Shown piece by piece: positions 5,290-29,488 of a DNA stretch of 32,000 nt (position 1 is its first letter; each line of letters opens with the position of its first letter). The position numbers were made by a program, and so were the translations under genes. The DNA is taken from the NCBI RefSeq assembly GCF_036962345.1, contig NZ_JBALNB010000017.1:124190-156189 (forward strand). The letters run 5' to 3'. Below the pieces are notes generated by a model that saw nothing but the letters and a program-made list of their open reading frames with translations, did not search any database and was not told the DNA's origin. The DNA comes from Neobacillus vireti. Lineage in GTDB: Bacteria; Bacillota; Bacilli; Bacillales; Cytobacillaceae.

Positions 5290-5298
5290 AAGGGAAAA

Positions 5299-5340: not shown

Positions 5341-5375
5341 AGGATTAAACATAAGGATAGAGCGGGAAGCAACAT

Positions 5376-5871: not shown

Positions 5872-5975
5872 AAAATCACCCCTAGTAAATATTCAACCAT
5901 CAACCTAAGATCTCTTTGGAAGATTAATGATTCTATCAACAATTATGGCAACATCTCACAGATTTCAAACCTTTA

Positions 5976-6080
5976 GAGACCAAAGGGACCAAAGTGGGGG
6001 AGACCAAAGGGACGGTTCTGGTGGCTTTTTCCTGCAGATTTGTTTAGTAAAAAAAGCCGGGAGAACCGTCCCCAAGGTCC
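5976..6080. repeat. REP-like palindromic element, copy A
   Basis: The arms are GGGACGGTTCT (6009-6019) and AGAACCGTCCCC (6062-6073), extended by GGTGGCTTTTT / AAAAAGCC. The left end GAGACCAAAGGGA occurs twice (5976-5988 and 6000-6012). Confidence 0.8.
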
Positions 6081-6190
6081 CATGGGATCGCTGCGGCGGT
6101 CTTATTTTTTGTTATGCTAACGATGCAGGTTCAAAAAACAAGGGGTTGAAAGAATAAATGATATAATTTCTAAAAAGGAGTGCTAAAAGT

Positions 6191-6577
6191 ATGAAATTAA
6201 AAGTTTTAGATTCAACTTTTTCCGTTGTGAAAATTCCTCCAACCGAAACAATACCATTGTGGGCATTAAACTCAGATATTTTTTCTATTACGCGAACAGA
6301 TGAGGAACTTTCTATCGTGTGTCCTTCAGAATGTTTATCCATGAACGAAGTATTTAAGGATGTTGAAAACGATTGGAAGTGTATAAAAGTAGAGGGAGTT
6401 TTAGACTTTAGTTTAACTGGAATATTATCTTCATTAGCAAAGCCATTAGCCGAAAATAAAATCAGTATCTTTGCTATTTCAACCTTTAATACAGATTACC
6501 TGCTTGTTAAAAGCCATTCAATTCAAAAAGCAAAAGTCGTATTAGAGAATGAAGGTCACACTTTTAACCATATTTAA
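6191..6577 (+). CDS. ACT-domain protein (small ligand-binding fold), function unknown
   Basis: The 128-aa product ends in a pattern typical of ACT_7-type domains (VLDFSLTGILSSLAKPLAENKISIFAISTFNTDYLLV). SD AAGGAG lies upstream. Confidence 0.6.
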   Translation: MKLKVLDSTFSVVKIPPTETIPLWALNSDIFSITRTDEELSIVCPSECLSMNEVFKDVENDWKCIKVEGVLDFSLTGILSSLAKPLAENKISIFAISTFNTDYLLVKSHSIQKAKVVLENEGHTFNHI

Positions 6578-6655
6578 AAAAGTTTATTGCACTTAAGGTG
6601 CTTTGTTTAAGATTTCGGCTTTCGTATTGGCAGCCTGATAGTCCAAGAAGTTATT

Positions 6656-6692
6656 ATGAAAGTAGAAATAGGACTCGTATTTCTACTTTCAT
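6656..6692. terminator. Perfect 15-bp stem-loop downstream of the ACT gene
   Basis: The stem is ATGAAAGTAGAAATA-ggactcg-TATTTCTACTTTCAT. There is no clear U-tract, so its terminator function is uncertain. Confidence 0.45.
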
Positions 6693-6856
6693 ATGAATTA
6701 CTAATTACACCTTTTGGCATTCATACCACTACAACTGTAGAGTTTACTTAGCGTTAGATACTATAATCATTTGTACTTTTAATGAACACACTAAAGTAAT
6801 TTACCAATATATTTTTACATCTATGGCATATCAGCTTTAACATCAGGGCGCTATGT

Positions 6857-7339
6857 TCAACGTCTCCTCGCGTAAAACTGACGATGGAGTTGACGAACTT
6901 GCTCCGCTAGTTCCGGAACAGGACCATCAATTGTGGTATCCCGAATAACATCTTGAATGGGAAGATTTCGAACGCGCGATGGAGCAACCCCCATTTCACT
7001 CAACCATTGTACCAGTTGCTCGGACGAACTTGCATAAACAATCCGACCTAAACCAACCCAGCCGTGGGCTGCAGCGCACATAGGGCAATGTTCACCCGAG
7101 GTATATACTGTCGCCTTTCCTCTTTCTTCAGTTGTCATGTTCCCGGCCGCCCATCGCGCCAAAGCAAATTCTGGGTGCTGGGTATGGTCACCATCTGCAA
7201 CGTGGTTATGGTCTTCTGCAAGAACGTCTCCGCTGGCTGAGACAAGAACAGAACCAAATGGCTCATCACCTTTCTCCAGCGCAGTTTTTGATAGTTCAAT
7301 ACAACGTCGCAGGTGCTTTAAATCAAAATCACTTATCAT
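6857..7339 (-). CDS. CMP/dCMP-type zinc nucleoside/nucleobase deaminase (TadA/guanine-deaminase-like)
   Basis: Contains the H-x-E motif (HPEF) and C-x-x-C (CPMC), the zinc ligands of the cytidine-deaminase fold. GGAGG lies 8 nt upstream. G+C content is markedly higher than in the neighbouring genes. Confidence 0.85.
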   Translation of the reverse strand: MISDFDLKHLRRCIELSKTALEKGDEPFGSVLVSASGDVLAEDHNHVADGDHTQHPEFALARWAAGNMTTEERGKATVYTSGEHCPMCAAAHGWVGLGRIVYASSSEQLVQWLSEMGVAPSRVRNLPIQDVIRDTTIDGPVPELAEQVRQLHRQFYARRR

Positions 7340-7384
7340 AATTGAAACCTCCTCAGCCTTTATTATTTTTTCATCAATATTTCA

Positions 7385-7651
7385 GGGGTGCCGCAGGGAC
7401 GGTTCTCATGGTTCGATTTAAGGAACATAATTGTCAATGATAAATACTGAAAACATTAATGGCTACTACATTGTTAAAAAACTTTTCTCCGAGAACCTCG
7501 AAAAGGTATAGTAAAATTGTTTCCCACATTATATAACCATGTATCATCTATATCCTAGTTTCATTTATACACATTCCTGTCACTAACCGAAGGTGAACAT
7601 CATTATATCCTAATACCATAATAAAAGGCCATCAGAACCGTCCCCACGGTC
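7385..7651. repeat. REP-like element, copy B (long-loop form) abutting the RAYT-like gene
   Basis: The left arm is GGGGTGCCGCAGGGACGGTTCTCATGGTTCG (core 7396-7415). The right arm is AAAAGGCCATCAGAACCGTCCCCACGG (core 7634-7645). The right arm ends 2-3 nt from the stop codon at 7653. Confidence 0.75.
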
Positions 7652-7652
7652 T

Positions 7653-8429
7653 TCACGCCTTAGAGATAAGTGTTCGTGAGATGCCTAAGATCCTTGATAG
7701 TTGGCGTTGTGATATGCCTTTGTTTTGTTTTGCCTTTTTAAGGATTTCATTTCTTTTGAGTTTTGGTAAACTTTTAACTTGGGCGATTTCAATTCCATCT
7801 AACAGTTTCTTAATCTTTTCCCTTGCTTCAATATCCGTTAATTTTCTTTCAGCCATATGGTCATCTAGACACTGATCCTGATTGACGCTTTCATTAAATT
7901 CTTTGAATCTTTCCCTAGCTACAATGTTTTCCTCCGAAAACTTTCCTAAAATGAATGTAGAATCCAAGAGTTCCCTGCCCTCATTACAAATTCTGTAATA
8001 ATATCGGCAGCTGCTCCACCTCCATTCATCCACCCTTTTGACGATACCTGCTTTAAGTGGATTTTGATGAATGTATCTTACTACAGTTAGTAAATACCGG
8101 AGATTTTCAACATTCTCACTCCTGAACCTGTCCTGAAAAAGATGCCCTGACGTTCCGTACTTCCCGTTATAGTACAAGGCAAAACTTACACCTATTCGTT
8201 TCATTGTGGTCGAAATATCTTCATTGCCTTCTCGTAACAACAGGTGGACATGATTACTCATCAAACACCAGCCGTAAATCTTCACGTTAGTTTGCAACTT
8301 ATATTTATGCAATAAATCGAGAAATCTTGAACAATCCTCATCATCGTGGAAGATTTCCTGTCTATTGGCACCTCTTAGCATAATATGATAAATTCCGCTT
8401 CCGCATTTCACTCTGGCTCTTCGAGGCAT
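7653..8429 (-). CDS. RAYT-like Y1 (HUH) transposase, IS200/IS605 Y1_Tnp fold with a C-terminal helix-turn-helix
   Basis: Contains the HUH motif SNHVHLLL (nt 8244-8252), the catalytic Tyr context VVRYIHQNP (Y at nt 8073-8075) and WRWSS, as in COG1943 REP-associated tyrosine transposases. The C-terminus GISQRQLSRILGISRTLISKA looks like a DnaA-C-like HTH. I prefer ATG at 8429 (SD AGGTGA 5 nt upstream) over the track GTG at 8438. Confidence 0.8.
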   Translation of the reverse strand: MPRRARVKCGSGIYHIMLRGANRQEIFHDDEDCSRFLDLLHKYKLQTNVKIYGWCLMSNHVHLLLREGNEDISTTMKRIGVSFALYYNGKYGTSGHLFQDRFRSENVENLRYLLTVVRYIHQNPLKAGIVKRVDEWRWSSCRYYYRICNEGRELLDSTFILGKFSEENIVARERFKEFNESVNQDQCLDDHMAERKLTDIEAREKIKKLLDGIEIAQVKSLPKLKRNEILKKAKQNKGISQRQLSRILGISRTLISKA

Positions 8430-9117
8430 CTTAATCACCTGAAGGAAACATCGTTCTACTCTTTTGCTCTTTTTCCCTATTTACTGTTTCTTTTAATTCC
8501 ATTCAAGCTTCTCCCTTGCATTTATTTGGATGAGTAGCAAGTTGCTTATGCTTATCTATCTTCCTTTATTTGTGCGGCCTCCATAAGAGCCACATCCGAT
8601 ATCGATTCTTCCTCATTTAAATCTAGCTAAACGGATAATCTTTATTTGCACTTGGATAATATGACCTTACTTAATTGTCATACTGCTGCTGTTTTCCAGT
8701 TCAAAGAGAATCGCCAATTAGTTTTTCAAGCGATTTTCTATTTCTCAAAAAAAATAATTGTAGGTAGATGGTTGTGAGTATTACTATCGAGTAAAGTGGT
8801 AATAGTTCGAATGATGATTTAGATGGGGGAGTAAAATAGAAGTTTGGAACAACATTATGTCACTTGTTCCAAAGCATGCTCTCGCTAAGGCTAAGACGAT
8901 TCTGAAATCAGTCGATGGCAAAAAAATAGCAGACGGGTCTCTTATAGATGGGGAAGAAAATATGTATTCGTGGTTAAAAAACACGCGTGGTAATCTTTAG
9001 TAGAATTAGTAAGGAAGAAACGATTTATATCAAACCTATCATACACCAATTTTCAAAATACTTCATTCAATTCTTCTGTGAAAATAAAAAACTCTTTGGC
9101 TAAGAGCTTCTCTCAGC

Positions 9118-9240
9118 CACAGTGTGAATTTAATTGGTCGATCTCACAAACCTTAAAATGGTTCAACCATCAATACCGACCACATTGTATGATGGCTGAT
9201 ACCACTAATAAAAGAATCATCAGAACCGTTACCGGACCTC
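9118..9240. repeat. REP-like element, copy C (degenerate, long form)
   Basis: The segment 9140-9233 aligns by eye with the interior and right arm of copy H (GATCTCACAAA...CGACCACATTGTATGATGGCTGATACCACTAATAAAAGAATCATCAGAACCGTTACC). The left arm has decayed. The right end abuts the stop codon at 9240. Confidence 0.55.
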
Positions 9241-9761
9241 TATTCGGGAATTACTTCATATGCAAGCTTAATAATAACATCCTTGTATTGAGGATATTTT
9301 GCCAAGAGATCAGCCTGTGTGAACAATTCAAAGTCCTGAAACTCAAAGCCTGGTGAAACCATACACCCTACTAAAGAAAATGTGTCGTCACCCATAACAG
9401 ACGATCCAAAGATAGAATTTTTTGGAACCAACGCTTGTGGTACTTCTCCTTGATCCAAGTCTAATCCTAATTTAAATTCTTTATATTCCCCATTCTCATC
9501 AATAATATGAACCGTTAATGGACTTCCTGCGTGATAATACCATAGCTCATCGGATTTCAAACGATGAAAATGAGATACGTCATTTGAAGTTAAGAGAAAG
9601 TAAATACTTGTATAAAGCCTGCGCTTCCCTTCAAAATTCACTGTTAATTCTTGATCAGAAGTCCTTTCCTCTGATGCAAATGTACTTTTATAATATCCAC
9701 CTTCTGGATGTGGCTCCAGCCCGAGCTTTGATACAAAATATTGTGGATCCATATTATCCAT
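9240..9761 (-). CDS. Cupin-superfamily protein (DUF985-like)
   Basis: HPEGGYY, SIYFLL and HRLKSDELWYYH are typical of the DUF985 cupin family. AGGAGG lies upstream. Confidence 0.75.
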   Translation of the reverse strand: MDNMDPQYFVSKLGLEPHPEGGYYKSTFASEERTSDQELTVNFEGKRRLYTSIYFLLTSNDVSHFHRLKSDELWYYHAGSPLTVHIIDENGEYKEFKLGLDLDQGEVPQALVPKNSIFGSSVMGDDTFSLVGCMVSPGFEFQDFELFTQADLLAKYPQYKDVIIKLAYEVIPE

Positions 9762-9940
9762 AGTAAAATACCTCCTGCTACAAAAGGATTGTGGTTTTTA
9801 GCTTACCAAACATACAATCATATAATCAAATGGTCTGAAGCCACGGAGATGGTTCGAAGCCACTGAGCCAATTTTTTTAAAAAACTGCTGGTTTTTTCAA
9901 TAATATGGTAAGAATGTGAAGTTAAAGGTAGGATATGTTT

Positions 9941-10013
9941 TCAGTGGCTTCGGACGGTTCTCTTGGTTCCTAATAAGGTTAGTTTGGACCACAAGAACCG
10001 TCCCCTTGGTTTC
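9941..10013. repeat. REP-like element, copy D (short form)
   Basis: The sequence is GGACGGTTCTCTTGGTTCC...GGACCACAAGAACCGTCCCCTTGGTTTC (cores 9952-9960 and 9994-10005). It differs from copy E at 5 of 64 positions by eye and overlaps the stop codon at 10012-10014. Its left flank TCAGTGGCTTCG (9941-9952) is the inverted repeat of CGAAGCCACTGA (9855-9866). Confidence 0.8.
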
Positions 10014-11967
10014 AAATTTCTTTTACAATCCTATATCCACCCATCTGCATGGTTTGATAAAGCTCCAGTACGACATCACTGTCATATTTTTGATAGTCTT
10101 CGCCTGTTATTTCTTCGATTTTCTTCAGGTCATCATAGGAGACTAAACAAGCATGAAGCCTTTTGTCAGGGTCTTTCGTTTTCCCATCAACAATTTCTTC
10201 AAGAATGTCCCACCCTCTAAGAAAATGGAAAGCATTCCAACGGTGATGTTCAGCGGCCCCTAGTAACGTAAGGTGTTCCTGCGCTGCTGCGATGTACTCT
10301 TCTGGTGTTAAGGCTTTATGACCGCTTTTCTCTATTTCACCTGCAGGAACTGCCTTTAACCCCATAAGCATAAGCTTTACTTCAGCATGATTGAGCTGAT
10401 TCCGATTGGATTCTTTTAAGAAGGTTGAAAGTTGGTCCCACGTTCCCTGTTTCTTTTTCGCCCCCTCTTCCTTGCTCTTTCGATAAGCTTCATGAATATT
10501 TTTTGCGCGATCTTCCAATTGGTCATTGACAACATAATCATAAGTCAATATTTCCTCATAGTTTCCAAAAAGATAAAGCTTGTTAAACTTCTCTGTGTTT
10601 GTGTGCAGCCAGTGACTGATTTGGGCTTTTTCACTTAATTTTAAGTAAATCGGGAGGTGAGGTATCGTTTTGCCAAGCTGAATGCCTGCTTTAAGATCGT
10701 CAAAATCATCTTTTAAACAAACAAAAATATGCGTGTAGGCTGCTTCTGCAGCATGGACATAATCATCAATCGAATCGGTTTCAATATCAATCGTATGAAA
10801 CGTTAAGTCTGCGACCCTTTTACTTTTTGGATAGTTCTCATACCACTCTTTTTTTACTTTCTCGGCATGCTTATCCAAAATAGTTATTTTGAGTTGTGCA
10901 GAATTTATATAATGTGCCCGTTCTATTGCCTGAAGTGCCAAATGTTGACCGGTTTGGCCAAATCCAATAAATAATAAATGCAATGCTTCTCCGTTCGGAT
11001 TCCGAAGTCGTTCTTCATATCCCTTATGAAGCGGGTATTCATTAAAGAGTTTTTCTGCCACTACCTTTTGTAAATTAAATGGTTTAACAGGAAGATAGTC
11101 CGCCCGGTTCGTTTTTAGGGAGAGATCTGTTTCGATTTCTTCAAACAGCTCATAGGATTGGTGATAAGCTAGATGTACGATCACCTGCTTTAAACTCAGT
11201 GATACACCAGTTTCCTTGACAAATTCATTTAATGCGAGTATTTCATTTAAATTCTTTGAATCTTCTTCATTAAAAATAATAAAATACTCGGCACTAGATA
11301 ATTTGCATTTTTTATATAAAGAGGTACTTCCTTGTTTTCCAATCAATAAAATAACTCCTAACTCACGCATATACGTCATTTGTGATTCAGAGATTTCTTC
11401 TACGATCAAAACAACCTTTTTCTGTTGTTTGCGCAGGTTCTCTATCAACACTTTGCTTTTATGATGATAACCAGAAATAACGATATGATTTCCAAAGATC
11501 CGATATAAAACTAGTTTGAAAGATTGATTGAAAAACAAATAAATTAATGAAAATAAAGTTGAAATTGTGTAGGCAGCAGCCGTCCAGCGCGCAATCTCTA
11601 TGGCAAGCGGGTAGGTTGTGAATTTACTGGCTGATTTTGAGAAAACAGGGTCTACATCCAGCAGGAACAGACGAAACGTTGAATACAATGCATTTGTAAT
11701 TGAATAATCTTCGATTGCGTGAAATTTAAATCCGTATACTCCTGAAGTGACCGCAACAATAAATAATAATAACTGTATACGGTTATTTTTAAGAATCTGA
11801 AAATAAAAAATAAACCAATATCCACATAGGACTATCGTAACCATTGTTGCTAAGAAGAGATTGGGCGTCCTTGTTTCCAGATGAAATCCCCATAAAAGAG
11901 CAACAATTATTAGAGTAAATATGCTATAGAAAAGGACAGAGGCATGCGTATGAATGATTTTTTTCAC
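10012..11967 (-). CDS. Membrane protein with two Rossmann/RCK (TrkA-N-like) domains and a C-terminal RyR-like region
   Basis: About 5 N-terminal TM helices (aa 1-165) are followed by two nucleotide-binding-like segments (HIVISGYHHKS..., LLFIGFGQTGQHLA with GxGxxG). The C-terminus (AEHHRWNAFHFLRGW...HACLVSYDDL...YQKYD) resembles RyR repeats. The GTG start lies 6 nt after the upstream stop codon. Confidence 0.7.
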   Translation of the reverse strand: MKKIIHTHASVLFYSIFTLIIVALLWGFHLETRTPNLFLATMVTIVLCGYWFIFYFQILKNNRIQLLLFIVAVTSGVYGFKFHAIEDYSITNALYSTFRLFLLDVDPVFSKSASKFTTYPLAIEIARWTAAAYTISTLFSLIYLFFNQSFKLVLYRIFGNHIVISGYHHKSKVLIENLRKQQKKVVLIVEEISESQMTYMRELGVILLIGKQGSTSLYKKCKLSSAEYFIIFNEEDSKNLNEILALNEFVKETGVSLSLKQVIVHLAYHQSYELFEEIETDLSLKTNRADYLPVKPFNLQKVVAEKLFNEYPLHKGYEERLRNPNGEALHLLFIGFGQTGQHLALQAIERAHYINSAQLKITILDKHAEKVKKEWYENYPKSKRVADLTFHTIDIETDSIDDYVHAAEAAYTHIFVCLKDDFDDLKAGIQLGKTIPHLPIYLKLSEKAQISHWLHTNTEKFNKLYLFGNYEEILTYDYVVNDQLEDRAKNIHEAYRKSKEEGAKKKQGTWDQLSTFLKESNRNQLNHAEVKLMLMGLKAVPAGEIEKSGHKALTPEEYIAAAQEHLTLLGAAEHHRWNAFHFLRGWDILEEIVDGKTKDPDKRLHACLVSYDDLKKIEEITGEDYQKYDSDVVLELYQTMQMGGYRIVKEI

Positions 11968-11973
11968 TTTTCC

Positions 11974-12279
11974 CTATTCCTTTCGAATGTCTTTTTCAAT
12001 TTTAAATCCTAATGATAAAATCATTTTTAACGTTTCCATTGCAGTGTTACGATCATAATCTTTGTCTTCTTCCGTTAACTCTTCATATGGAACGAGATTC
12101 GGATGCATCCTTTTGCGATCGTTCCGCTCTGGTCCATAGGTCCAACCTTGTTCTATTCTTTGTGATGCCCAGACCTCATGAATATTTTTAGCTAATTCCT
12201 CCTTGAGTTCCAGAACTTCTACTGGTAACCCAATTCCCGAAGTCACAATCGGTTCTGGTTTATACGTCATTACCCTCAC
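11974..12279 (-). CDS. Stand-alone RyR (ryanodine-receptor repeat) domain protein
   Basis: LAKNIHEVWASQRIEQGWTYGPERNDRKRMHPNLVPYEELTEEDKDYDRNTAMETLKMILSLGFKI closely matches the RyR domain consensus (PF02026, recalled from memory). An alternative ATG start lies at 12270. Confidence 0.85.
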   Translation of the reverse strand: MRVMTYKPEPIVTSGIGLPVEVLELKEELAKNIHEVWASQRIEQGWTYGPERNDRKRMHPNLVPYEELTEEDKDYDRNTAMETLKMILSLGFKIEKDIRKE

Positions 12280-12285
12280 CCTTTC

Positions 12286-12401
12286 TGTGCCAAAGGTGTG
12301 CCAAAGGGACGGTTCTCATGGTTCCGAATAAGGTTCGTTTGGACCACTAGAACCGTCCCCTTGGTTTCCCCATGGTTTCCCCATGGTTTCCCCCTGGTTT
12401 C
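12286..12401. repeat. REP-like element, copy E with stuttered termini
   Basis: The core is GGGACGGTTCTCATGGTTCC...GGACCACTAGAACCGTCCCC (12306-12360). The left end TGTGCCAAAGG occurs as 2 tandem copies (12286-12307). The right end TCCCCWTGGTT occurs as 4 tandem copies (12356-12399). The element ends at the stop codon of the next gene (12402). Confidence 0.85.
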
Positions 12402-12773
12402 TTATCTCCACCTCTTAGCCAAAAAAATGCCTAAGACTATGGAAAATAACGATAGATAGAATCCAATACCTGATAGTACATAATTTGTTCCACCTAGAAT
12501 AAACAGCGCTGCTCCCGCAATGAAGCCTGTAATACTCAAACCTTTCAATATGGAATGAGATTGTTGACTCTTTTTCGCTCGTTTGATGTACTGCATTCGT
12601 ACAAATTTTTTACCTAAATAAAAATTCTTCAGACGAAATAAGCCATACAAGACTGCGAGTGCCAGAAGAAAATTAAGAACGGTCTGGAGTCCAAAGTCAC
12701 CAAATACTATGGCAAGAAAAAAAATTCCTATTACGATAAAAATAGAATTAATCATTAAAGATAGAAATCTCAA
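12402..12773 (-). CDS. Small integral membrane protein (about 4 TM), unknown function
   Basis: The product shows a hydrophobic helix pattern. The start is TTG with AGGGG upstream. I recognise no family. Confidence 0.55.
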   Translation of the reverse strand: MRFLSLMINSIFIVIGIFFLAIVFGDFGLQTVLNFLLALAVLYGLFRLKNFYLGKKFVRMQYIKRAKKSQQSHSILKGLSITGFIAGAALFILGGTNYVLSGIGFYLSLFSIVLGIFLAKRWR

Positions 12774-12854
12774 GTTTAAACGCCCCTAACTCTCTTTACC
12801 TATTACATCATTTGATTTACGATAATGGTAGATTATCATTTTTGGGGTGGACTT

Positions 12855-13538
12855 ATGTACTTTTTCAACTATTATTTCCGTTTTATAAATATTCTGGTGT
12901 TAACCTTTGTTGTAGCATTTCCCATTTTCGGGTTTGCGCTCTTCCTATTTTTTGAGCCGCAGACAGAATATCAGCTATATTTTGAAGGAAAATTCCTGGC
13001 TTTCTTTACGGTTTTTATCATTTGCTTATTTATCAGCCGGCTTCTTAATAATTTACGGCATGAAAAAGCACCTAGTAACATCATACATATTCTTTGGATT
13101 GGTCTATTAACCATGCTTCTAATTTTTTCAAGTCTGTTCGGCTTGATGATGATGAAGCAATATTTCACAGCGTTCCAAGATGACCTTCCCGTTCAAACGA
13201 AAAGTACGTTGGCACAGGTCATTCCCATCGAAGAGGAATTATTCGGACCAATCGACAACAGTTTAGTTGGTCAGATTCCATACAATGCACGCGGTAACAT
13301 GCACCGATATGGGATTCAACTCATTGATACCAATCATCAGGTCTACCAAACCGCCTACTTTGATTCATTAGATGACTATACCTTTACACTTAAAAAATTA
13401 AGAGGCGAGGTCGGCAATACTATCATCATTGACCTGCTGCCAAAATCAAAGCGAATTGTTTCCATTGAGGTTCCAACTGAATCTGGGCCATTCTATGAAA
13501 ATGAATTTCTATCAAAAGGAGAAGAAGGGAGCTTTTAG
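12855..13538 (+). CDS. Membrane protein (3 TM plus C-terminal soluble domain), unknown function
   Basis: I prefer ATG at 12855 (SD GGGGTGGA) over the track start at 12825. The N-terminus has hydrophobic helices and the C-terminal half is soluble. Confidence 0.6.
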   Translation: MYFFNYYFRFINILVLTFVVAFPIFGFALFLFFEPQTEYQLYFEGKFLAFFTVFIICLFISRLLNNLRHEKAPSNIIHILWIGLLTMLLIFSSLFGLMMMKQYFTAFQDDLPVQTKSTLAQVIPIEEELFGPIDNSLVGQIPYNARGNMHRYGIQLIDTNHQVYQTAYFDSLDDYTFTLKKLRGEVGNTIIIDLLPKSKRIVSIEVPTESGPFYENEFLSKGEEGSF

Positions 13539-16500
13539 CTGGCCCCTTCTTTTTTTTGCGGAAAGTGGTATTCCTTCCTTTTCATCGTATTTCCTTCAAT
13601 TGTCTGTAATTTGTCCCCATTCCAGTACAAACCAATCATCGGTTCATTGGTATAAAAAAGCGCTGTTTCTTTTCCTTCTGTAAGCATGAAAACCTTTAGC
13701 CAGTTGCCCAGCCCCACAGCTAGATAGTTCCCCGTTTCATCCCAAGCCAGCAGGGAATTCGCACCCAATACTTGGCCAAACCGCTGAATCCTTTGTAAGT
13801 TTGCTTTCTCACTTTCTTGCTTGGCCATGTCTTCTAAACTAGCTATCTTCTCATGCGGCAGCAACATAATATCATGTAAATAGTCAGCAAGCGCATGTGA
13901 TACACCTGTTGGGAAGCAATCAAGCTGATGGACAACTTGCTTCAATTGGACCTGAACAACAATGAATTCAAACCGCATCCCTAAAAAAGCAATTTGTTTG
14001 CTATCATGGCTCCATTCATGGTTTTCCACCAATTGGTTTAAGCTTCCCTTGGCGATTAATTTTTCGTTTATTTTTCCCTTTTTTGTACCCGCAATCTGAT
14101 AAACAAAAAATTGATTGCCAATGCAAATAGACAAGTATTGACCATCCGGACTCCACTTCATAAGAATTTGCCCCTCACTTTCAGGGCCAGCATCCAGCAT
14201 CCAGCTCTTCCCATCATTTGTATTCAGATCGATCAAATCTATCAACCCGTCAGCGTGTACAATACAAATCACTTGTCCGTTCGTTGACCACCGTGCCGTA
14301 ATGATTTCACTACTTGATGTAAACGTCTTTTTTACATAACCGCTCCGAATATTCATGATCCACACTTGATCTTTTGTCCCGAACGCTGCCAATTTTTCAT
14401 CCGCAGATAGGTGACAAAACCGGATGTTCCCTGATTTAAACGGCTGATATTGAATGATAGAGTCCTCTTTGAGATTATGAATCTGCATGTATTGACCTAG
14501 ATGCCCTGTCGCTAAATAAGATTTTGATGAAGACAGCGAACTAGAAATGATCAACGAATCGATAAATTGGGTATTAACTTGTTTGGCAGCAAAGATGTCT
14601 TCTACCTGTTTGGATAAGGCTTTTCTCCGTGGTATGAGTACATCAAAGGCTCCAGCCAATCTGTTCAGCCAGTCTGCATAATGGGCAAACACCCATAATG
14701 GATGGGTATAGGCCCAATCAACCTGATCACCATTGCTGCTTTTGGCATCCAGCTGGCGGAAATCCCATATCGTTACCTTTCCGTCAACGGTAATCGTAGC
14801 AAGGAGCCCGTCCTTAAAATCGATTGTCAGCAAGGTTTCGGAAGCTGGCAAGGCAAGCCGCAGCTTGCCATGTCCAGATTTTCCCTCCCAAACAAAGATT
14901 TCGCCTTTATCTAAAACTGAAAGAATTTTCGTTTGATAAAAATAATGCCGGCCGATTTCCAAACCAATGGTACTATCTTCCCTTACGCCGCGTTCAATAT
15001 TCCAAACCATGATTCCAGTGCTTTCACTTGTCCATAAGAAGCCCTCATCGTCATAGTACATGTAATGATAGAGAGAGGTATCTGGCATGAGTTGATATTT
15101 CGAGCGCAGCACTTTCTTTTCGGTCTGGTTATGAACATCCCAAATCACCATTTTTCGATAATCTGAACTAAACTTTGCTTGATACCAGATCGCGAGTTCA
15201 TCCCCATCACGTCTCCAGGCTAATTGAAGAACGGCCTGATCGATGGGCTTACACGTAACCTTCTCTTGGGATGGCAGATGGATGATTTCAACTATCCCTT
15301 TCTCTGTGCCAACGGCTAGGTCTTCACCATTCGGCCTCCAAGCTAGATTTAAGATGGTCTCTTCTACCTGTGTCTCGTAAACACACGTAAAAGTAGATGA
15401 TTCCAAGATACTCAGTTTATGGTTACTGGCAAGCGCTAGGAGATCCTCCTCCTCCGAAAAAACAACGTGTTTAATCGTACCAATTCCCGGATAATGCTGA
15501 TTGATTTCTTCGCCTGTATAGATATCCCAAATTTTAATAACGTCGTCATGAATGGTTAATAATTGCCTGCCATTTGGATGCCATTTACAAAAAGATAAAT
15601 CAATATCTGGCAATTGAAAGGTATGTTGATAATAATCTAAATCAAGATCCTGACCTTGATTGGAAAGAAGATATTGGATACTTTTCTCTTCATACCAGCG
15701 TTTTGCCTCACGAAATACCTTTGAACCTTCAGGCATTCTGATCGCAAATGGTAAAATTTGCTCTGGGAACTGCACAAGTAAACTATGGTGAATTTGACAA
15801 AAACGTGAAAAATCATCTGCATACTGTGTGGAATGCCTGGAACCTTCCTGCAAGTTTTTCAGATTTTCATAGTCTCGCAGTAAATCATGAGAAAGTTTTG
15901 TTTGTATCTTTGACTGGAGGAAGTTGAAATCTGTTAACAGGCTTTCCATTTGTCGATCATATCCTGACTGATACAATTGGAGTGGAAGTTCGAATGCCTT
16001 GCGATGATTCGGAATCTGACTTTCTTCTCCGTCCAAAAAATTCTGCTTATCTTGAAAATAGTCGGCGATTTTTTCATGAAAATCTTGCTTTAAATAGGTC
16101 TCTTTAATTTTCCGGCCAATTTGACGGTGGTAAAAGCTATAGATATAGGAACCATTCTCATTTCTCTCCATCAAATAGGGCTCAAGATCATTAAACAAGC
16201 GCGCCCAAATGACTACGGGCAAGTTTTTCCCGAGATACTCATGCTTAGCCTTACTATAAAAATCTTCCATTACATCACTGTTTTCCGATAACAATGCAAG
16301 TAACTCAGCCTCTTCCAAGCCGTTCCTTGAGGCTGCCAAAAGGCCGAACACATGGTTGATTAAGACAGATCCATGGTTCGATGGATGGGACAATCGCTCA
16401 AAAAACTGCTCTAATATTCCATCAATGCTAGGGAGAAGAGGTCGCTTCTCTTGAAAGGAGGTCCATAATTTCACCTCTTCAAATGCAAGCTTTAAATATA

Positions 16501-24920: not shown

Positions 24921-24966
24921 ACATAAAATAAAAGGCATGAGTCCGGTTCAATACCGAATTCATGCC
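24921..24966 (-). terminator. Rho-independent terminator of the 101-aa membrane protein gene
   Basis: GGCATGAGTCCGGT-tcaat-ACCGAATTCATGCC forms the stem with two mismatches. On the minus strand it is followed by TTTTATTTTAT. Confidence 0.55.
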
Positions 24967-25011
24967 CAAGAAGCTGCCTAAATTTCGAAAAACCGAGGAG
25001 TGACAGGCATC

Positions 25012-25317
25012 TCACAAGCTCATATACCCAAGCATTTCAGCAAAGGGCAAAATAGAAAGGAAGAAAAATAACAAAAATAGACTTAGGCCAATTAAAAATG
25101 TCCTCTTATTCATGCGGTGTCTGTTGAATAAAATAACGGCAATCCAAATAGGAAACGCGATGACTATATTCAACACACTGACCCATATACTGATCCCAAC
25201 AAAGTAGATATTGATATCATGTTCGCTCCGCCCTCCGTTAACCATAAAATGGAGGACCATCATTACACTAAGAAACAACAGCAGGATTAAATGATAAGCA
25301 AGCCAGGCTTTTTTCAT
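25012..25317 (-). CDS. Small membrane protein (3 TM), unknown function
   Basis: The product is a hydrophobic 101 aa. GAGGT lies 5-6 nt upstream and a terminator lies downstream. Confidence 0.65.
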   Translation of the reverse strand: MKKAWLAYHLILLLFLSVMMVLHFMVNGGRSEHDINIYFVGISIWVSVLNIVIAFPIWIAVILFNRHRMNKRTFLIGLSLFLLFFFLSILPFAEMLGYMSL

Positions 25318-25405
25318 GATTACCTCATCATAATAATTATTTTATTACCTCTTACCTTACATTAAACTAATTTAACGTATTTATGGGAATAATTTCACCA
25401 TTGAG

Positions 25406-25500
25406 AAAACCGGAGGGAAAACCGGAGGGACGGTTCTCATGGTTAGATTTTGGGTTACCATTTCCTACTTGAAAGGCCAACAGAACCGTCCCCATGGTCC
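25406..25500. repeat. REP-like element, copy G with a duplicated left terminus
   Basis: AAAACCGGAGGG occurs as 2 perfect tandem copies (25406-25429) running into GGGACGGTTCTCATGGTT (from 25427). The right arm is CAACAGAACCGTCCCCATGGTCC (core 25482-25493). Confidence 0.85.
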
Positions 25501-25511
25501 TTCTCAAGACG

Positions 25512-25535
25512 AAAAAAATACCGCCATTGCGGTAT
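25512..25535 (-). terminator. Rho-independent terminator of the small ORF
   Basis: ATACCGC-catt-GCGGTAT forms the stem. On the minus strand it is followed by TTTTTTT. Confidence 0.6.
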
Positions 25536-25578
25536 TAGCTTTTCTAATTTCAAAATTGTTAGTGGAGCTATTGTTAAA

Positions 25579-25743
25579 CTAATCGACACTATTATTCTTT
25601 TTTATTTCGTCGCGTATTTCCTTTAGATATTCATTTCTTTGTTTCATTAACTTTAAGATAGTAATTACAACATAAATAGCAAACACGAGAATTCCTAAAT
25701 ATAATAAGATAGGAATAAGTCCTAAAAAAGCCATCATTTCCAT
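25579..25743 (-). CDS. Small single-pass membrane protein (54 aa), absent from the ORF track
   Basis: My own translation is MEMMAFLGLIPILLYLGILVFAIYVVITILKLMKQRNEYLKEIRDEIKKNNSVD. GGAGG lies 8 nt upstream of the ATG at 25743 and a terminator follows the stop codon. Confidence 0.5.
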   Translation of the reverse strand: MEMMAFLGLIPILLYLGILVFAIYVVITILKLMKQRNEYLKEIRDEIKKNNSVD

Positions 25744-25868
25744 ATGTTAATCCTCCAAAACTATGTTTCAACTTATATTACCATATTATTCCATGAATTC
25801 CTCGTTAATTTAAATTTATATAAAACAACAAAGTTAACGAAAACAGTCTGTCGTTAAAAGAATGACCC

Positions 25869-26000
25869 GGGGTCGGTTCTCATAATTCGATTATGGTTAG
25901 GTATCTCACAAATCTCAAAATCGTTCAACGATCACAACGACACATTGTGTGAGGGCTGACACCACCAATTAAAAAGCCATTAGAACCGTCCCCATGGTCC
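25869..26000. repeat. REP-like element, copy H (long form)
   Basis: The left arm is GGGGTCGGTTCTCAT. The right arm is AAAAAGCCATTAGAACCGTCCCCATGGTCC (core 25982-25993). The element ends 3 nt from the stop codon at 26003. Confidence 0.8.
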
Positions 26001-26002
26001 TG

Positions 26003-26801
26003 TTATTCCATTAGTCGAGGTTTAGCAGGATTACAGTTTGGCGGTTCAATATCTGCACTTTCTGCTAATTTCATTAAATAATAACATTCTTCTCGATACA
26101 TATGATCTGCCATTAAAGGCGCAAAAGTTCCTAATGCTTGCTTACTTAGTTTTAGTTCTTCCAGTTCAGATAAGAAATTTTGAAATAGCTTAATTTCTAA
26201 CTCAGCGTCCTTAGTCATTTTTTTCAAAGCTGGAAAGGCAGTCAAATTGGTTCTTAAATATCCTGCTAGCTCTACCGCTTTTAGGTAAAAACCTTCAAAG
26301 TCCTTTTTAAATGTGTTACTTTTCTCTCTTAATTTCTTTTCAACACCATCTAAATTGGAGGATATCGCTTCGGAATGTCCCGCAGCATCCAATAACCATA
26401 AAAGGATGATGATGGAGTTCATGGTAAACAGGAGGGTCTTGCCCCGCCATTAAATGTTTTAAAATTCTTAAATATTCCTCTAATTCATTTACCATATGGT
26501 TAAAAAAAGTAGGTGAAAGGTGAATCTTAATTTTTCCGACAAGGTGCTTTCTTAGTAATTCTAATTTAAATTCTCGTAATTTTAGTACCTCTTCTTCTGC
26601 TTGAGCGGTTAATTGCATCAATTCAGAGGAATTTGATTGATCTAAAAGTGTATCAAATGTATGAATAAAATTAGCGGCCTGCTCAATCTCAGCTTTTTGA
26701 ACAGGAGCAAGAGCTTCATAAATAAACCTAGAATGATCACCTAAAATCTGCAGCCAAAATCGGTGTTCAAATCTTGCATTCCTCTCAAATGTTTCATTCA
26801 T
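26003..26801 (-). pseudogene. DUF2935-family protein split by a 1-nt frameshift
   Basis: The two overlapping ORFs (26340-26831 and 26003-26422) correspond to the first and second halves of the intact paralog at 28214-29071. The frames join at CATCATCATCCTTTTATGG (about 26400-26415): ...PVYHELHHH then LLWLLDAAGHSEAI. The start is ATG at 26801, 7 nt after AGGAGG. Confidence 0.75.
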
Positions 26802-26870
26802 GTTGGTTCCTCCTAGGAAAAAAATATCCACACAAATTGATATATATTCCCGTAAAGTGCTCTTATGCCA

Positions 26871-26891
26871 GGGGGACGGTTCTCCTGGTTC
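26871..26891. repeat. REP-like element, copy I (left arm only)
   Basis: The sequence is GGGGGACGGTTCTCCTGGTTC. It is followed by an unrelated long hairpin instead of a right arm. Confidence 0.6.
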
Positions 26892-26893
26892 AG

Positions 26894-26954
26894 AAAAAGG
26901 TGCCTGTCACCGGATGTGTCCTTTCGTCAACACATCGGTGACAGGCACCTTTTT
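26894..26954. terminator. Long bidirectional terminator-like hairpin
   Basis: AAAAAGGTGCCTGTCACCGGATGTG...CACATCGGTGACAGGCACCTTTTT forms a stem of about 23 bp with one bulge. An A-run and a T-run flank it. Confidence 0.65.
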
Positions 26955-27242
26955 GGTTCTATATCTGAAAAATCTTATGGATGAGATTAAATTATTAATA
27001 GTCTCAGTGTAACGGGTTCTCTTAATGAGAGTAATTGAATTTAATAAGATGGTAACGATTAGAAGAACCATTCTTACAAATACCACTGCACCCGTTGTGT
27101 CCATAAGAGCAGACCAATCCTCGTTTTACCAGATAATGGCCATATAAGATTTGGAAATATAACGAAATAACACAAGCACTGATACTCATAATAGAAAGAG
27201 CAATCCAATTCTTGTGGGCATGCCTTTTATATATTCATTGTT

Positions 27243-27902
27243 TCAGACCTCTTTATTCATAACGATATTATTTTCATCAGCAACCTGACCGTTAATTCTT
27301 TGTTTCCAATAAGTATTTGTTCCATTATTTTTTAGAATTGCATGGTACGGAACCTGTTTAATTATAAGAAGGAGATTAAGGAGATCAACAGATGATGCCA
27401 TGGCATTTAGAATGATCAAAATTTTTAGTGTCGGTGTTAATAGCCCAAATGCACCTAATAGTAATGGCATAATGATTGAAATAATCATGAAAGGCGCAAT
27501 GGTAATGAAGATATATCTTGATTTTGAAATCTCCTCCTCCGTTAGGACAAAACCTCCGAAAAGAGTAAGACCTATATATGTTTTTTGGGATTGTATAAAG
27601 TGAGGAATGAAAATTAAATGAAGTAATTCGTGAAGGATGATCAGTAGAACAAGCAAAAAAATAATGCCTAAGTTAATGGATATTGATATTGAATCCGATG
27701 TAAATCCAAAATCGCTTAAAGCAATAGAGGAAAAGATATTTATGATCCCAATAGAGATGAATGCAGCGACAATCATGAAAGGAATTGATAACAAAATAGC
27801 ACTCATTACATTCTTAGGTTCTTTCATTGGAATCCATCCACTTTTAATTAGGTCCAAATGTAAATGCGGGTTACTTTTTGGCACTTTGTTTACTATTTTC
27901 AT
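27243..27902 (-). CDS. DUF3267-like membrane protein (putative zincin-type metallopeptidase, HExxH)
   Basis: It has multiple TM helices with HELLH embedded (LLIILHELLHLIFIP). I prefer ATG at 27902 (SD GGGGGTG) over the track start at 27920. Confidence 0.7.
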   Translation of the reverse strand: MKIVNKVPKSNPHLHLDLIKSGWIPMKEPKNVMSAILLSIPFMIVAAFISIGIINIFSSIALSDFGFTSDSISISINLGIIFLLVLLIILHELLHLIFIPHFIQSQKTYIGLTLFGGFVLTEEEISKSRYIFITIAPFMIISIIMPLLLGAFGLLTPTLKILIILNAMASSVDLLNLLLIIKQVPYHAILKNNGTNTYWKQRINGQVADENNIVMNKEV

Positions 27903-28039
27903 TAATACACCCCCGTACATACCTCAATTCAAGAAATTTGAAACTACCCTACCAAAAAAACTTAATGAACACGCTACATCCCTTTCTAAATATTAACATA
28001 TATATCCAGTAAACTTAAAAAGTTTTGTTTCAGAATCTG

Positions 28040-28117
28040 GGGGTGCCATAGGGACGGTTCTCATGGTTCGATTATGGGTTAGTATCACAAAAAACCATGA
28101 GAACCGTCCCCCTGGCC
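28040..28117. repeat. REP-like element, copy J (short form, best palindrome)
   Basis: GGGACGGTTCTCATGGTT (28051-28068) pairs perfectly with AACCATGAGAACCGTCCC (28094-28111). The left flank GGGGTGCCATA resembles that of copy B. Confidence 0.85.
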
Positions 28118-28213
28118 TGCCCGACTTGCCCCGTATTCAATCCTAGGTATATTTAATTAACTTTGTTAATAAGCTTAGAGCAATTGGATTATTTTATTGA
28201 GGGGGTTTTAAGA

Positions 28214-29071
28214 ATGAACGGTGAGGATCACATGTTACATGCTGATACTGGTGTTACATCTGTATTGTTTGTTGAGCGCTCTTTAAATGAAATACGTTTT
28301 TGGGCTAGGATCATGAAAGAACATTCTTTATTTCTTCGATTGGGTTTTAGAGCAGAGGATACTCAACTAATTCAAGAGGCCAATCAATTTTACCGTACAT
28401 TTGAACGTATCGAACAAGCCGCACATGCATTTACTAATCAAACGGATCCAGAACAAATTAGAAGATTTAATTCAGAAGTACAACAAGCTGCAACGAATAT
28501 ATATGTATTTAAACGAAAAATATTAGGCTTAATTATTACATGTCAGTTGCCAGGAGCCAATAATTTCCCACTGCTAGTTGATCATACAAGCAGGGAAGCG
28601 AATTACTTTAGAAAACGACTAATTCAATTAAATGAAGGTAAATTGGATGCCCTTCCAGACGCTATTATTAAAGAAAATGTCTTCTTCTTAAGGATAATGG
28701 CTGATCATGCTAAATTTATTGGTCATTTGCTGGATCCATCCGAAAGGAAATTAATTGATATGGCACATAATTTTAGTAATGATTTTGATCAATTATTGTA
28801 CCAAGCCAGAGATTTGGACTCGATGAGACCACAATCTCAAACAATTCCTCTTTTGGATCAATTTTTGGACCAAAACCGTGTATCGGTCTCATCCCTTCGA
28901 GACTTTAAGAAGACTGCACGTGATTTAATTGAGGAATGTAAAATTAAGAGTATCATTCATCCACTATTAGCAGACCATGTTTTTCGGGAAGCTGATAGGT
29001 TCCTTGAAATCATTGATATGTTTGATGCCCATCTTACTGCCGGCAGTCAAAAACCTAGAGATCAATATTAA
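28214..29071 (+). CDS. DUF2935-family protein (two-repeat helical-bundle putative metalloprotein), intact copy
   Basis: It contains two internal repeats, each with a FW/FL...MxEH/ADH motif (IRFWARIMKEHSLF and VFFLRIMADHAKFI) plus LVDHTSREANYF and LLADHVFREADRF. I prefer the start at 28214 (SD GAGGGGG). Confidence 0.8.
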   Translation: MNGEDHMLHADTGVTSVLFVERSLNEIRFWARIMKEHSLFLRLGFRAEDTQLIQEANQFYRTFERIEQAAHAFTNQTDPEQIRRFNSEVQQAATNIYVFKRKILGLIITCQLPGANNFPLLVDHTSREANYFRKRLIQLNEGKLDALPDAIIKENVFFLRIMADHAKFIGHLLDPSERKLIDMAHNFSNDFDQLLYQARDLDSMRPQSQTIPLLDQFLDQNRVSVSSLRDFKKTARDLIEECKIKSIIHPLLADHVFREADRFLEIIDMFDAHLTAGSQKPRDQY

Positions 29072-29103
29072 AGACCCCTTTAATAAAAACGTTAGGAGCC
29101 ACA

Positions 29104-29215
29104 GGGACGGTTCTAATGGTTCCATTTATACATAGAGGTGTCACTAACTAGTTAGGTGACACCTCTATTTACACATTCACAATCAAAAAAAGCCATCAGA
29201 ACCGTCCCCATGGCC
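29104..29215. repeat. REP-like element, copy K with an internal terminator-like hairpin
   Basis: The left arm is GGGACGGTTCTAATGGTTCC. The internal hairpin is ATAGAGGTGTCAC..GTGACACCTCTAT (29132-29168). The right arm is AAAAAGCCATCAGAACCGTCCCCATGGCC (core 29198-29209). Confidence 0.85.
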
Positions 29216-29227
29216 GCCCAAAGTTTC

Positions 29228-29365
29228 CTCGGCTTCGGACAGGTACTTGCTTTTTTTTGCCCTTCCTTGTCCGAAGTTGACACGGCTTCGGACTCGGCCT
29301 TGCTTTTTAATGTTCAGCAAACAAATGATAAATTGAAAAATGGCCGAAGTCGCAACTTCGGCCTT
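29228..29365. repeat. Cluster of hairpins built from GGCTTCGGAC / GTCCGAAG units
   Basis: GGCTTCGGAC occurs at 29231-29240 and 29284-29293, and its complement GTCCGAAG at 29269-29276. A perfect hairpin GGCCGAAGT-cgca-ACTTCGGCC lies at 29342-29363. Confidence 0.5.
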
Positions 29366-29443
29366 AAGAAAGAAATCATAGAGAAACCAACATGCTTTCA
29401 TGAGCATCAGCCCTTAGAAAAATTAATCGGGCTAGAAGACTAA

Positions 29444-29478
29444 CCATCAGTGGGGCATGGAGACCCCCCCACTGATGG
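29444..29478 (-). terminator. Stem-loop downstream of the sugar transporter gene
   Basis: CCATCAGTGGGG...CCCCACTGATGG forms a 12-bp stem 11 nt after the stop codon. There is no clear U-tract. Confidence 0.45.
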
Positions 29479-29488
29479 AAGTTCCACT

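Follow-up and report, generated by a model that had tools for sequence, protein, structure and literature searches.

REP/REPIN-like palindromic repeats in Neobacillus vireti and their probable association with a Y1 (HUH) REP-associated tyrosine transposase

The present analysis deals with a family of palindromic repeats in a stretch of 32,000 nucleotides of DNA from Neobacillus vireti (contig NZ_JBALNB010000017.1; referred to as the window), for which a dense population of elements resembling repetitive extragenic palindromic (REP) sequences or miniature inverted-repeat transposable elements (MITEs) had been proposed in an original prediction. We consider it probable that these repeats are non-autonomous REP/REPIN-like elements (REPIN: REP doublet forming a hairpin), which belong together with a REP-associated tyrosine transposase (RAYT) of the Y1 (HUH) type encoded at 7653-8438 on the minus strand. 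Judged by analogy to related enzymes, this RAYT is the most likely agent spreading the repeats. The association with the RAYT explains the data better than MITEs do, since the RAYT gene abuts one of the copies, inverted copies of the same core flank its homologues, and no target-site duplications were seen.

The repeat family and the anatomy of its arms

The repeat family observed in the window is real and lies far beyond chance. A search for GGGACGGTTCTNATGGTT with up to three mismatches on both strands yielded 19 matches compared to 0.05 expected, a number reached in none of 100 shuffles. With the 12-mer GGGGACGGTTCT and up to two mismatches, 21 matches were obtained compared to 1.0 expected. 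Of these, nineteen coincide with the arms found with GGGACGGTTCTNATGGTT, and the two additional ones, at 18803 and 30460, are intragenic and look like chance matches. Arms were present in all eleven regions named beforehand. They comprise eight inverted doublets, two solo arms and one degenerate long form without a left arm, and the copies sum to about 1.2 kb or 3.7% of the window. Within the doublets the distance between the arms ranges from 25 to 220 nt, and the elements are 60 to 260 nt long. Upon folding as single-stranded DNA, the doublets of the window form one long hairpin with z-scores from -2.5 to -8.

The placement of all copies in intergenic DNA, as originally predicted, agrees with the overall map of open reading frames (ORFs), except for the copy at 9944-10013, which overlaps the stop codon of the ORF at 10012-11967 by 2 nt. 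Two copies (5976-6081 and 28039-28118) are located between divergent gene starts, two between convergent gene ends and the others between tandem genes, and many sit shortly 3' of stop codons. The internal sequence supposed to be common to the long forms could be recovered, with 88% identity between 9141-9172 and 25903-25934 and 80% between 7558-7587 and 29119-29148. The idea that short forms are deletion derivatives also gained support, as 28051-28110 retains the left interior of the long form 25870-25912 (81%), which fits an internal deletion. The flanking motifs described before, AAAAAGCCAYCAG 5' of the right arms and GGTGCCRYA 5' of the left arms, are real, and within the arm hairpins they constitute the inner and the outer stem.

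The motif also occurs outside the window. It was found on two contigs of the N. vireti assembly GCA_036961715.1, namely JBALND010000108 (L121, at 15230-16979) and a second one (L204, at 8846-9005), in N. jeddahensis, where 20.8 kb contain about 20 arms, and in other genomes, with at least 120 stretches. These stretches were obtained by scanning the doublet pattern GGACGGTTCT-N25-55-AGAACCGTCCC over one genome per species, for which fewer than 10 matches were estimated by chance. Among the Bacillaceae, the matches include Neobacillus, Rossellomorea, Falsibacillus, Virgibacillus, Oceanobacillus and others, and many more belong to Clostridia. Further matches were found in assemblies labelled as Coriobacteriia, Actinomycetota (including the type strain of Micropruina glycogenica), Bacteroidales/Prevotella, Omnitrophota, Elusimicrobiota, Atribacterota, Nitrospirota, Spirochaetaceae and Syntrophaceae.

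In these arms, the bases flanking the core on the outside pair with those on the inside, although pairing within an arm had not been required by the pattern; the arms were selected by the 12-nt core, and the stem was not part of the selection. Position logos over 418 arms showed a conserved block of G(78%)G(98%)GGACGGTTC-T(94%). Positions 4-9 on each side of it pair in 55-72% of the arms, in one register only, compared to about 30% when shifted or permuted. When 112 arms, each from a different locus, were aligned without gaps, 69.4% of the cells paired compared to 44.8% after shuffling (0 of 500 shuffles), and the covariation score amounted to 0.60 compared to 0.21 for shuffled and 0.15-0.20 for slid partners, with changes on both sides in all seven pairs. 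The arm is a hairpin of about 26-30 nt, in which a paired stem of 6-7 bp is free to vary and a loop of 13-15 nt contains the core GGGGACGGTTCT. A doublet comprises two of these hairpins in inverted orientation, which corresponds to the logic of a REPIN, and it can also fold as one long hairpin.

Two subtypes of arms were distinguished in the window. Arms on the plus strand read AGGGACGGTTCT-CATGGTT (A-GGGACGGTTCT) and those on the minus strand GGGGACGGTTCT-GATGGC-TTTTT (G-GGGACGGTTCT). All six A-type arms of the window are located on the plus strand, at a GC skew of -0.08, and compared to the window the polarity of the arms is mostly reversed in N. jeddahensis, which shows a skew of +0.08. The arm with the T-run lies on the G-rich strand in most copies of N. 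jeddahensis and Rossellomorea (loci L123 and L033). Over all loci, a crude automatic classifier related the polarity of the T-run to the sign of the GC skew in 28 of 44 cases, which is not significant (p ~0.10). The arm polarity may reflect an orientation bias linked to replication.

A further property of the arms is found at their ends. Of 394 arms, 44 show a further copy of the outer stem no more than 36 nt outward, compared to 2 in the control. The repeated terminal unit comprises the outer stem plus GGG and occurs in two to four tandem copies with a period of mostly 9-12 nt. Four of these sites are located in the window (5976-6008, 12282-12305, 25405-25426 and 12356-12400), and others were found at L017, L029, L030, L111, L123 and further loci. 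Slippage and cutting by the RAYT inside the core are candidate causes for the repeated ends.

The RAYT gene and its link to the core

The ORF at 7653-8438 on the minus strand (258-261 aa, ATG at 8429) had been overlooked in the original prediction and represents a Y1/HUH RAYT. It matches Y1_Tnp of Pfam at 5.9e-16 and the NCBIfam family NF047646 (REP-associated tyrosine transposase) with 86 bits at a cut-off of 80. By sequence, the sole significant relative with a solved structure is TnpA_REP of E. coli (4ER8, bound to a REP hairpin; E 3.5e-7). The same structure was the top Foldseek match (E 4.9e-8, target-normalised TM-score 0.72) of an AlphaFold model with a mean pLDDT of 87, followed by the transposases of ISDra2, IS200 and IS608 (2XMA, 2F4F, 2A6M). 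The HUH motif (H60-V-H62 in NHVHLLL), the catalytic tyrosine in RYIHQNP and the W-SS motif are all invariant in the alignments. Beyond the Y1 core, the protein carries a C-terminal extension of about 110 aa, which ends in a helix-turn-helix (HTH). This is supported by weak matches to HTH_19/HTH_3 at residues 231-260 and by helices of the model at 199-257, and the orthologue P0094 has a precomputed match to PF13384 (HTH_23).

The nearest database protein is a REP-associated tyrosine transposase of N. vireti with 97% identity, and a complete match (100% identity) to an N. vireti protein was obtained for one DUF2935 protein of the window. Exact-sequence look-ups of the RAYT (with either start codon) and of P0121 gave no match. 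Homologues of the RAYT form 5,529 clusters at E<=1e-10 and, among the matches listed, almost every cluster is seen on just one contig. Five distant homologues were detected in 72,556 plasmid records, and the doublet pattern occurred in just 8 stretches of viral contigs; in these sequence collections, no sign of carriage by phages or plasmids was seen. The ratio of non-synonymous to synonymous substitution rates (dN/dS) of the RAYT was 0.31, 0.18 and 0.09 compared to three Neobacillus orthologues. As judged from these gap-free alignments, the gene is under purifying selection. Its synteny is kept between two N. vireti strains, and the neighbouring genes differ in Neobacillus sp. C211 and N. jeddahensis.

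The association of RAYT and core was followed in 80 metagenome loci of 40-60% identity, which were retrieved with the alignment of RAYT homologues alone. About 45 of the 80 loci show a plus-strand core 60-75 nt before the RAYT start and a minus-strand core 11-50 nt after the stop. Loci seemingly without the core carry variants at the same places, namely GGGGACGGGGTT, GGGGACAGGT(A/T)CC and GGGGACGTTCT. The short motif GGGAC[AG] was found at -150 to -30 in 52 of 69 loci, with a median of -64 and an interquartile range of -72 to -62, compared to 3.2% of cases in control windows, and its reverse complement followed within 110 nt of the stop in 48 of 67 loci (median +24). Altogether, about 75% of the RAYT homologue loci carry the core or a GGGGAC(G/A)G variant, and GGGGACGGTTCT is the commonest core. 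In the Clostridiales genome L018, a RAYT of 37% identity is located between six tandem plus cores and four tandem minus cores. In 51 of 54 cases a RAYT and its nearest neighbour share the core variant, a figure which is inflated by close relatives in the sample. The mean RAYT identity within and between core types showed no difference (0.475 and 0.473; 761 of 2000 permutations), and clustering was evident from the nearest-neighbour comparison only.

The sequence TTGACA forms the inner stem of the upstream arm at many RAYT loci, and a TATAAT-like box follows about 17 nt further (e.g. L165, L180, L201 and L146; L129-L201). The RAYT promoter therefore seems to obtain its -35 element from the arm. 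Compared to these relatives, where arm and promoter are found no further than about 70 nt from the start, the gene of the window is preceded by about 680 nt (8439-9117) that contain no ORF of note, Rfam match or arm up to the next element. In Neobacillus sp. C211 (L122, 5255-9732), a RAYT of 83% identity adjoins IS21-family copies (rve and IstB); the locus has almost no arms, and a degenerate arm is kept after the RAYT stop. The Neobacillus assembly GCA_030915525.1 showed no arms with the GGTTCT core in 20.8 kb and two other doublet families with the cores GGGGACAGTCCCC and GGGGACAGGCAC, both of which fit the published TIRYT motif GGGGWSAS. These doublets are located at 6386-6433, 13916-13963, 15327-15364 and 18133-18178 of L205 and also on L206.

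A mechanism for the spread of the repeats can be proposed on the basis of the transposition of IS608 and ISDra2, and for Y1 transposition no target-site duplication is expected. On single-stranded DNA, such as that of replication forks, a dimeric RAYT would bind to the hairpins of the arms, and it would read the bases of the loop directly. A conserved loop on a covarying stem would be expected for a protein that requires fixed bases to be presented on a hairpin, the sequence of which is otherwise free. Cleavage would proceed via Tyr119, with the metal bound by H60 and H62, and by rejoining of the strands the doublets could be excised and copied in trans to new intergenic sites without target duplication. 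Solo and degenerate arms would then be products of decay. The other basis of this proposal is TnpA_REP of E. coli, which cleaves single-stranded REP hairpins (summarised in PMC3733652 and PMC6006769).

By its architecture and motifs, the RAYT of the window fits the lineage known as RAYT Group 1, TnpA-Y1 subclass 2.1 or TIRYT. Going one step further, the hairpin with GGGGACGGTTCT, including variants such as GGGGACGGGGTT and GGGGACAGG, might be the recognition element of this lineage, which would then maintain REPIN-like populations in many phyla, among them the first one for Bacillota. We put this forward tentatively and rate its chances at slightly below even. If true, the read-out of the loop, instead of the stem or a GTAG tag, would set this Y1 enzyme apart by its way of recognising the substrate. 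Footprints of replication-coupled transposition of single strands would then be seen in the repeated terminal units and in the apparent common polarity of the doublets relative to the GC skew, and the populations would reach a density of about 0.5-1 arm per kb in the sampled regions of N. vireti and N. jeddahensis.

Individual copies and comparison of strains and species

Doublet 1 (5976-6081; cores at 6008-6019 on the plus and 6062-6073 on the minus strand) lies between the divergent NDK and ACT-domain genes. Its outer-stem unit is repeated on the left (5976-6008), and its fold amounts to -22 kcal/mol with a z-score of -5.1. Doublet 2 (7389-7652; cores at 7395-7406 (+) and 7634-7645 (-)) is a long form whose arms are separated by about 220 nt; it is conserved in L121, and 8 nt lie between the end of its right arm and the RAYT stop codon. 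On the other side of the gene, 780 nt upstream of the RAYT start, the degenerate long form (9118-9240) abuts the stop of a Cupin_5 gene. It comprises only the right arm, with a core at 9222-9233 (-) reading GGTAACGGTTCT, and its fold is not significant (z -1.5). The arm that is degenerate here is intact in the orthologous N. vireti locus of L121.

Doublet 3 (9944-10013) is a short form with cores at 9950-9961 (+, TCGGACGGTTCT) and 9994-10005 (-) and a z-score of -3.5. Doublet 4 (12282-12400; cores at 12305-12316 (+) and 12349-12360 (-); z -4.9) fills the entire gap between two genes, and its terminal units occur twice on the left (GTGCCAAAGG) and four times on the right (CCCCATGGTTT). These two doublets are 94% identical over 62 nt, and their flanks are unrelated.

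The first solo arm (24856-24888, minus strand) is located between convergent genes. The arm that had been placed at 24869-24885 does exist, with its core corrected to 24870-24881. It lies within a segment of about 400 nt (24488-24895), which is 80% identical to 15215-15623 of L121. Since this second segment of N. vireti also bears an arm, some arms appear to travel in larger repeated pieces. Doublet 5 (25405-25500; cores at 25426-25437 (+) and 25482-25493 (-); z -2.5) shows a doubled left terminal unit, GAAAACCGGAGG. Doublet 6 (25860-26000; cores at 25869-25880 (+, GGGGTCGGTTCT) and 25982-25993 (-); z -3.2) is again a long form and abuts the stop of a DUF2935 ORF. At 26003-26831, two overlapping ORFs of 139 and 163 aa on the minus strand contain one DUF2935 domain each, compared to two domains in intact relatives of about 280 aa; they probably represent a frameshifted gene or a sequencing error. 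The second solo arm is found at 26866-26901 on the plus strand (core 26872-26883).

Among the short forms, doublet 7 (28039-28118; cores at 28050-28061 (+) and 28100-28111 (-)) shows the most perfect pairing, with -24.8 kcal/mol and a z-score of -6.7, and is placed between divergent genes. Doublet 8 (29092-29216; cores at 29103-29114 (+) and 29198-29209 (-); z -8.0) is a long form with an internal hairpin of its own, which lies between convergent genes and is conserved in L204. To the right of it, at 29218-29308, a terminator-like hairpin (CGGCTTCGGAC...GCTTTTT) is present as a tandem duplication of 53 nt, compared to a single copy in L204. The region 13535-24235 encodes a STAND NTPase of 1515 aa (DUF4062, NACHT/AAA_16, APAF-1 helical, WD40), followed by an ankyrin-repeat protein and ORFs without a Pfam family. 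It resembles an island of the defence type, and PADLOC gave no convincing match.

For the comparison of strains, L121 is collinear with 6804-18446 of the window at 97% identity and L204 with 28095-32000 at 96% identity. Small changes were observed at the ends of the elements. An extra terminal unit of 24 nt at doublet 1 is present in the window and absent from L121; this polymorphism between strains indicates that the repeated ends change on a short time scale. A segment of 720 bp with the ACT-domain gene (6082-6803) is likewise absent from L121 and starts precisely where the outer stem of doublet 1 ends, directly after ...AAGGTCCC. A 3.8-kb segment (1569-5368) with the genes of a P-type ATPase and an Nramp transporter is absent from L121 as well. 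The contig L204 terminates inside the doublet 28039-28118, which fits a break introduced by the assembler at a dispersed repeat.

Arm densities were counted using the core with up to one mismatch. The window and both N. vireti contigs showed 0.53-0.55 arms per kb, N. jeddahensis 0.96 and Neobacillus sp. C211 0.05 per kb, and no arms were counted in two metagenome contigs or in the loci of four further Neobacillus/Bacillus assemblies. Thus, the density differs more than 10-fold between congeneric species. The DUF2935 orthologues in other species are not syntenic and serve as density samples only, without empty sites.

Alternative explanations and comparison with known systems

Several observations weigh against the assignment of the repeats to the RAYT. 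The gene of the window lacks the stereotyped arm at about -64, and its nearest upstream arm is degenerate and 780 nt away, so that the bracketing is partial, with a doublet abutting the RAYT stop and a displaced upstream arm. The canonical GT(A/G)G/GTAG tag at the foot of the hairpin was absent from the logos of the 418 arms, where the conserved bases are those of the loop GGGGACGGTTCT. Automatic and manual searches by Quentin et al. 2018 (PMC6006769) found no REP-like sequences beside subclass 2.1 genes. Since the doublet pattern demanded the exact core, the taxonomic list presented above reflects the spread of the core and is no independent measure of its conservation. For the source genome, the arms were counted within the 32-kb window. 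The comparison for presence/absence polymorphisms suggested in the original prediction showed none for whole copies; in about 15.5 kb aligned with GCA_036961715.1 at 96-97% identity, all eight comparable copies occur in both strains and there is no filled versus empty site. Hence, recent transposition is not demonstrated, and we infer the cleavage of the arms, the part played by their loop and the mobility of the elements at the present day.

This conservation of eight out of eight copies would also suit a relic or domesticated system, in which the RAYT lineage spread the arms in former times and the arms, now immobile, are kept as hairpins useful to the host. Possible uses would be the stabilisation of mRNA 3' ends, barriers, or binding sites for the HTH of a domesticated RAYT. 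The displaced or degenerate state of the arms flanking the RAYT itself in the window and the combination of a C-terminal HTH with purifying selection point in the same direction, and RAYTs have been argued to be domesticated (Bertels et al. 2017, PMC5581495). Nonetheless, we regard a relic, including the host uses named, as rather unlikely, given the 94% identity of doublets 3 and 4 in unrelated flanks, the different number of terminal units between strains and the more than 10-fold difference in density between congeneric species. Furthermore, a 3'-end function would be senseless for the two copies between divergent gene starts. Far less probable are classical MITEs, that is, deletion derivatives of an insertion sequence (IS) of the DDE type with the arms as terminal inverted repeats. 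The inverted repeats of about 30 nt, the element length of 60-260 nt and the long and short forms resembling deletion derivatives would be in line with them. However, the direct repeats flanking 160 doublets were no longer than those of the control, and this lack of a target-site duplication argues against a classical DDE-type MITE. No target motif was conserved outside the element ends beyond the G-rich termini. In addition, no DDE transposase bounded by arms was found in the window or among loci amounting to about 1.5 Mb (which is not genome-wide), and the only bracketed gene is the Y1 gene, which the arms bracket at fixed distances in about 75% of the homologue loci. Each arm is itself a covarying hairpin, a feature not needed in a DDE terminal inverted repeat.

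Intrinsic terminators or a structured non-coding RNA family would account for the strong hairpins (z down to -8), the many copies just after stop codons and the T-run after the inner stem of one arm type. This explanation is about as improbable as the MITEs, if not slightly more so. The T-run lies inside the long hairpin of the doublet and not after it, a terminator scan of 7300-9300 gave no calls on arms, and copies are present between divergent promoters (5976-6081 and 28039-28118). In Rfam, no match reached the gathering score in the whole window, and for 5900-12500, which covers 5 of the 11 copies, none reached E<=1 except for a chance match at 6657-6694 (E 0.62). Moreover, the elements are palindromic with variable spacing, and their core brackets a transposase gene across phyla. 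Together with the strong variation of the density between species, these results separate the repeats from known RNA and terminator families. Finally, chance similarity or a purely local duplication within the window could only appeal to the clustering of six copies in 24.8-29.2 kb and has a negligible probability, as 0 of 100 shuffles reached the count, the flanks are unrelated and the same elements occur in other contigs and genomes. Altogether, the REP- or MITE-like character proposed at the outset is supported, and the repeats are best assigned to the REP/REPIN side together with the RAYT.

In the literature, abundant REPs with RAYTs were described solely in gamma-proteobacteria by Nunvar et al. 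2010 (PMC2817692). Bertels et al. 2017 (PMC5581495) tied REPINs to RAYT Groups 2 and 3 only and reported Group 1 as the largest group with the widest spread, including Clostridia, and with flanking 16-mers at about 12 per replicon. Di Nocera et al. 2013 (PMC3733652), where the word Firmicutes is absent, described RAYT-like TIRYT genes whose inverted repeats share GGGGWSAS and form moderately abundant families in few species. These TIRYTs were equated with subclass 2.1 and Group 1 by Quentin et al. 2018 (PMC6006769), who also noted the C-terminal HTH. The core sequence itself, searched in the full text of the literature, matched nothing but unrelated primers, and RAYTs of Bacillus relatives appeared in the searched literature as annotation lines only. 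According to the literature searched, a REP-RAYT pairing in the Bacillus group is not yet described, which agrees with the earlier statement that these elements are little characterised in Bacillaceae.

Work on REP/REPIN-RAYT systems has so far been almost confined to Proteobacteria, and the function of Group 1/subclass 2.1 was left open by the surveys. The arms offer a short DNA substrate, a 12-nt loop on a stem of 6-7 bp, for questions of binding and cutting by subclass 2.1. For the Bacillaceae, they provide a candidate REPIN-like population for studies of evolution within genomes. In practice, they could be used as markers for strain typing and for assembly breaks in Neobacillus. If true, the pairing of a supposedly partnerless RAYT lineage with a conserved-loop hairpin would be of interest to specialists.

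Compared to known systems, the repeats share with bcr1 of the Bacillus cereus group, RUP and the Correia/NEMIS MITEs the small size, the intergenic location, the boundary by inverted repeats, the high copy number and the long and short forms. In contrast to these elements, which are mobilised by DDE enzymes and flanked by target duplications, the partner gene is of the Y1 type and no duplications were seen. The CGTC-tagged REPs (Di Nocera et al. 2013) are similar in that the reverse strand of the core (AGAACCGTCCCC) contains CGTC and in that they mostly form head-to-head dimers. They have stems of 8-9 bp, loops of 4-5 nt, the tag at one end and no known transposase, whereas in the present arms CGTC lies inside a loop of 13-15 nt and a cognate RAYT exists. 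An identity with the CGTC-tagged REPs was rejected based on the position of CGTC within the loop and the differing stem and loop sizes. With the IS200/IS605 family (IS608, ISDra2), the Y1/HUH fold, the hairpins near the ends, the lack of target duplication and a possible strand bias relative to replication are shared. The members of this family are autonomous and multi-copy, with subterminal hairpins in direct orientation and a TnpA of about 130-150 aa without HTH, while here the gene looks single-copy and the small elements are multiplied. An IS200/IS605 insertion sequence was discarded, the arms being inverted and the gene occurring once per contig.

A closer likeness exists to the REP elements and bacterial interspersed mosaic elements (BIMEs) with TnpA_REP in E. 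coli and to REPIN-RAYT in Pseudomonas (PMC2817692, PMC3116915, 4ER8). Common features are short extragenic hairpins in high copy number, inverted doublets folding as a long hairpin, a gene bracketed by inverted units and the absence of target duplication. The same holds true for the presumably chromosomal Y1/HUH gene with the same fold and catalytic motifs, the protein clusters here being each on essentially one contig. Differences concern the foot of the hairpin, where the Neobacillus arms have no GT(A/G)G tag, and the conserved part, which is the 12-nt loop on a variable stem, unlike classical REPs with their GC-rich, family-specific stem and tiny loop. In addition, the RAYT of the window has an extra C-terminal HTH, the host belongs to Bacillota and not to Proteobacteria, and the spacers between the arms are heterogeneous (25-220 nt).

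With the TIRYTs or 'TIRtrons' (PMC3733652), which correspond to TnpA-Y1 subclass 2.1 (PMC6006769) and RAYT Group 1 (PMC5581495), the RAYT of the window has in common the long protein with a C-terminal HTH. Their inverted repeats start with GGGG, and sister loci carry GGGGACAG, which fits GGGG[AT][CG]A[CG]; the core of the window, GGGGACGGTTCT (GGGGACGG), has G instead of A at position 7 of the published motif. The examples of TIRYTs given in the part of the published material that was available include no Bacillaceae. Both groups of repeats are sometimes found in dimers or clusters and show a wide and patchy taxonomic spread. Compared to subclass 2.1 as described by Quentin et al., for which no REP-like structures were reported, every arm here is a covarying hairpin, and compared to the about 12 genome copies of the flanking 16-mers in Group 1 (Bertels et al.), 17-20 arms are present here in 21-32 kb.

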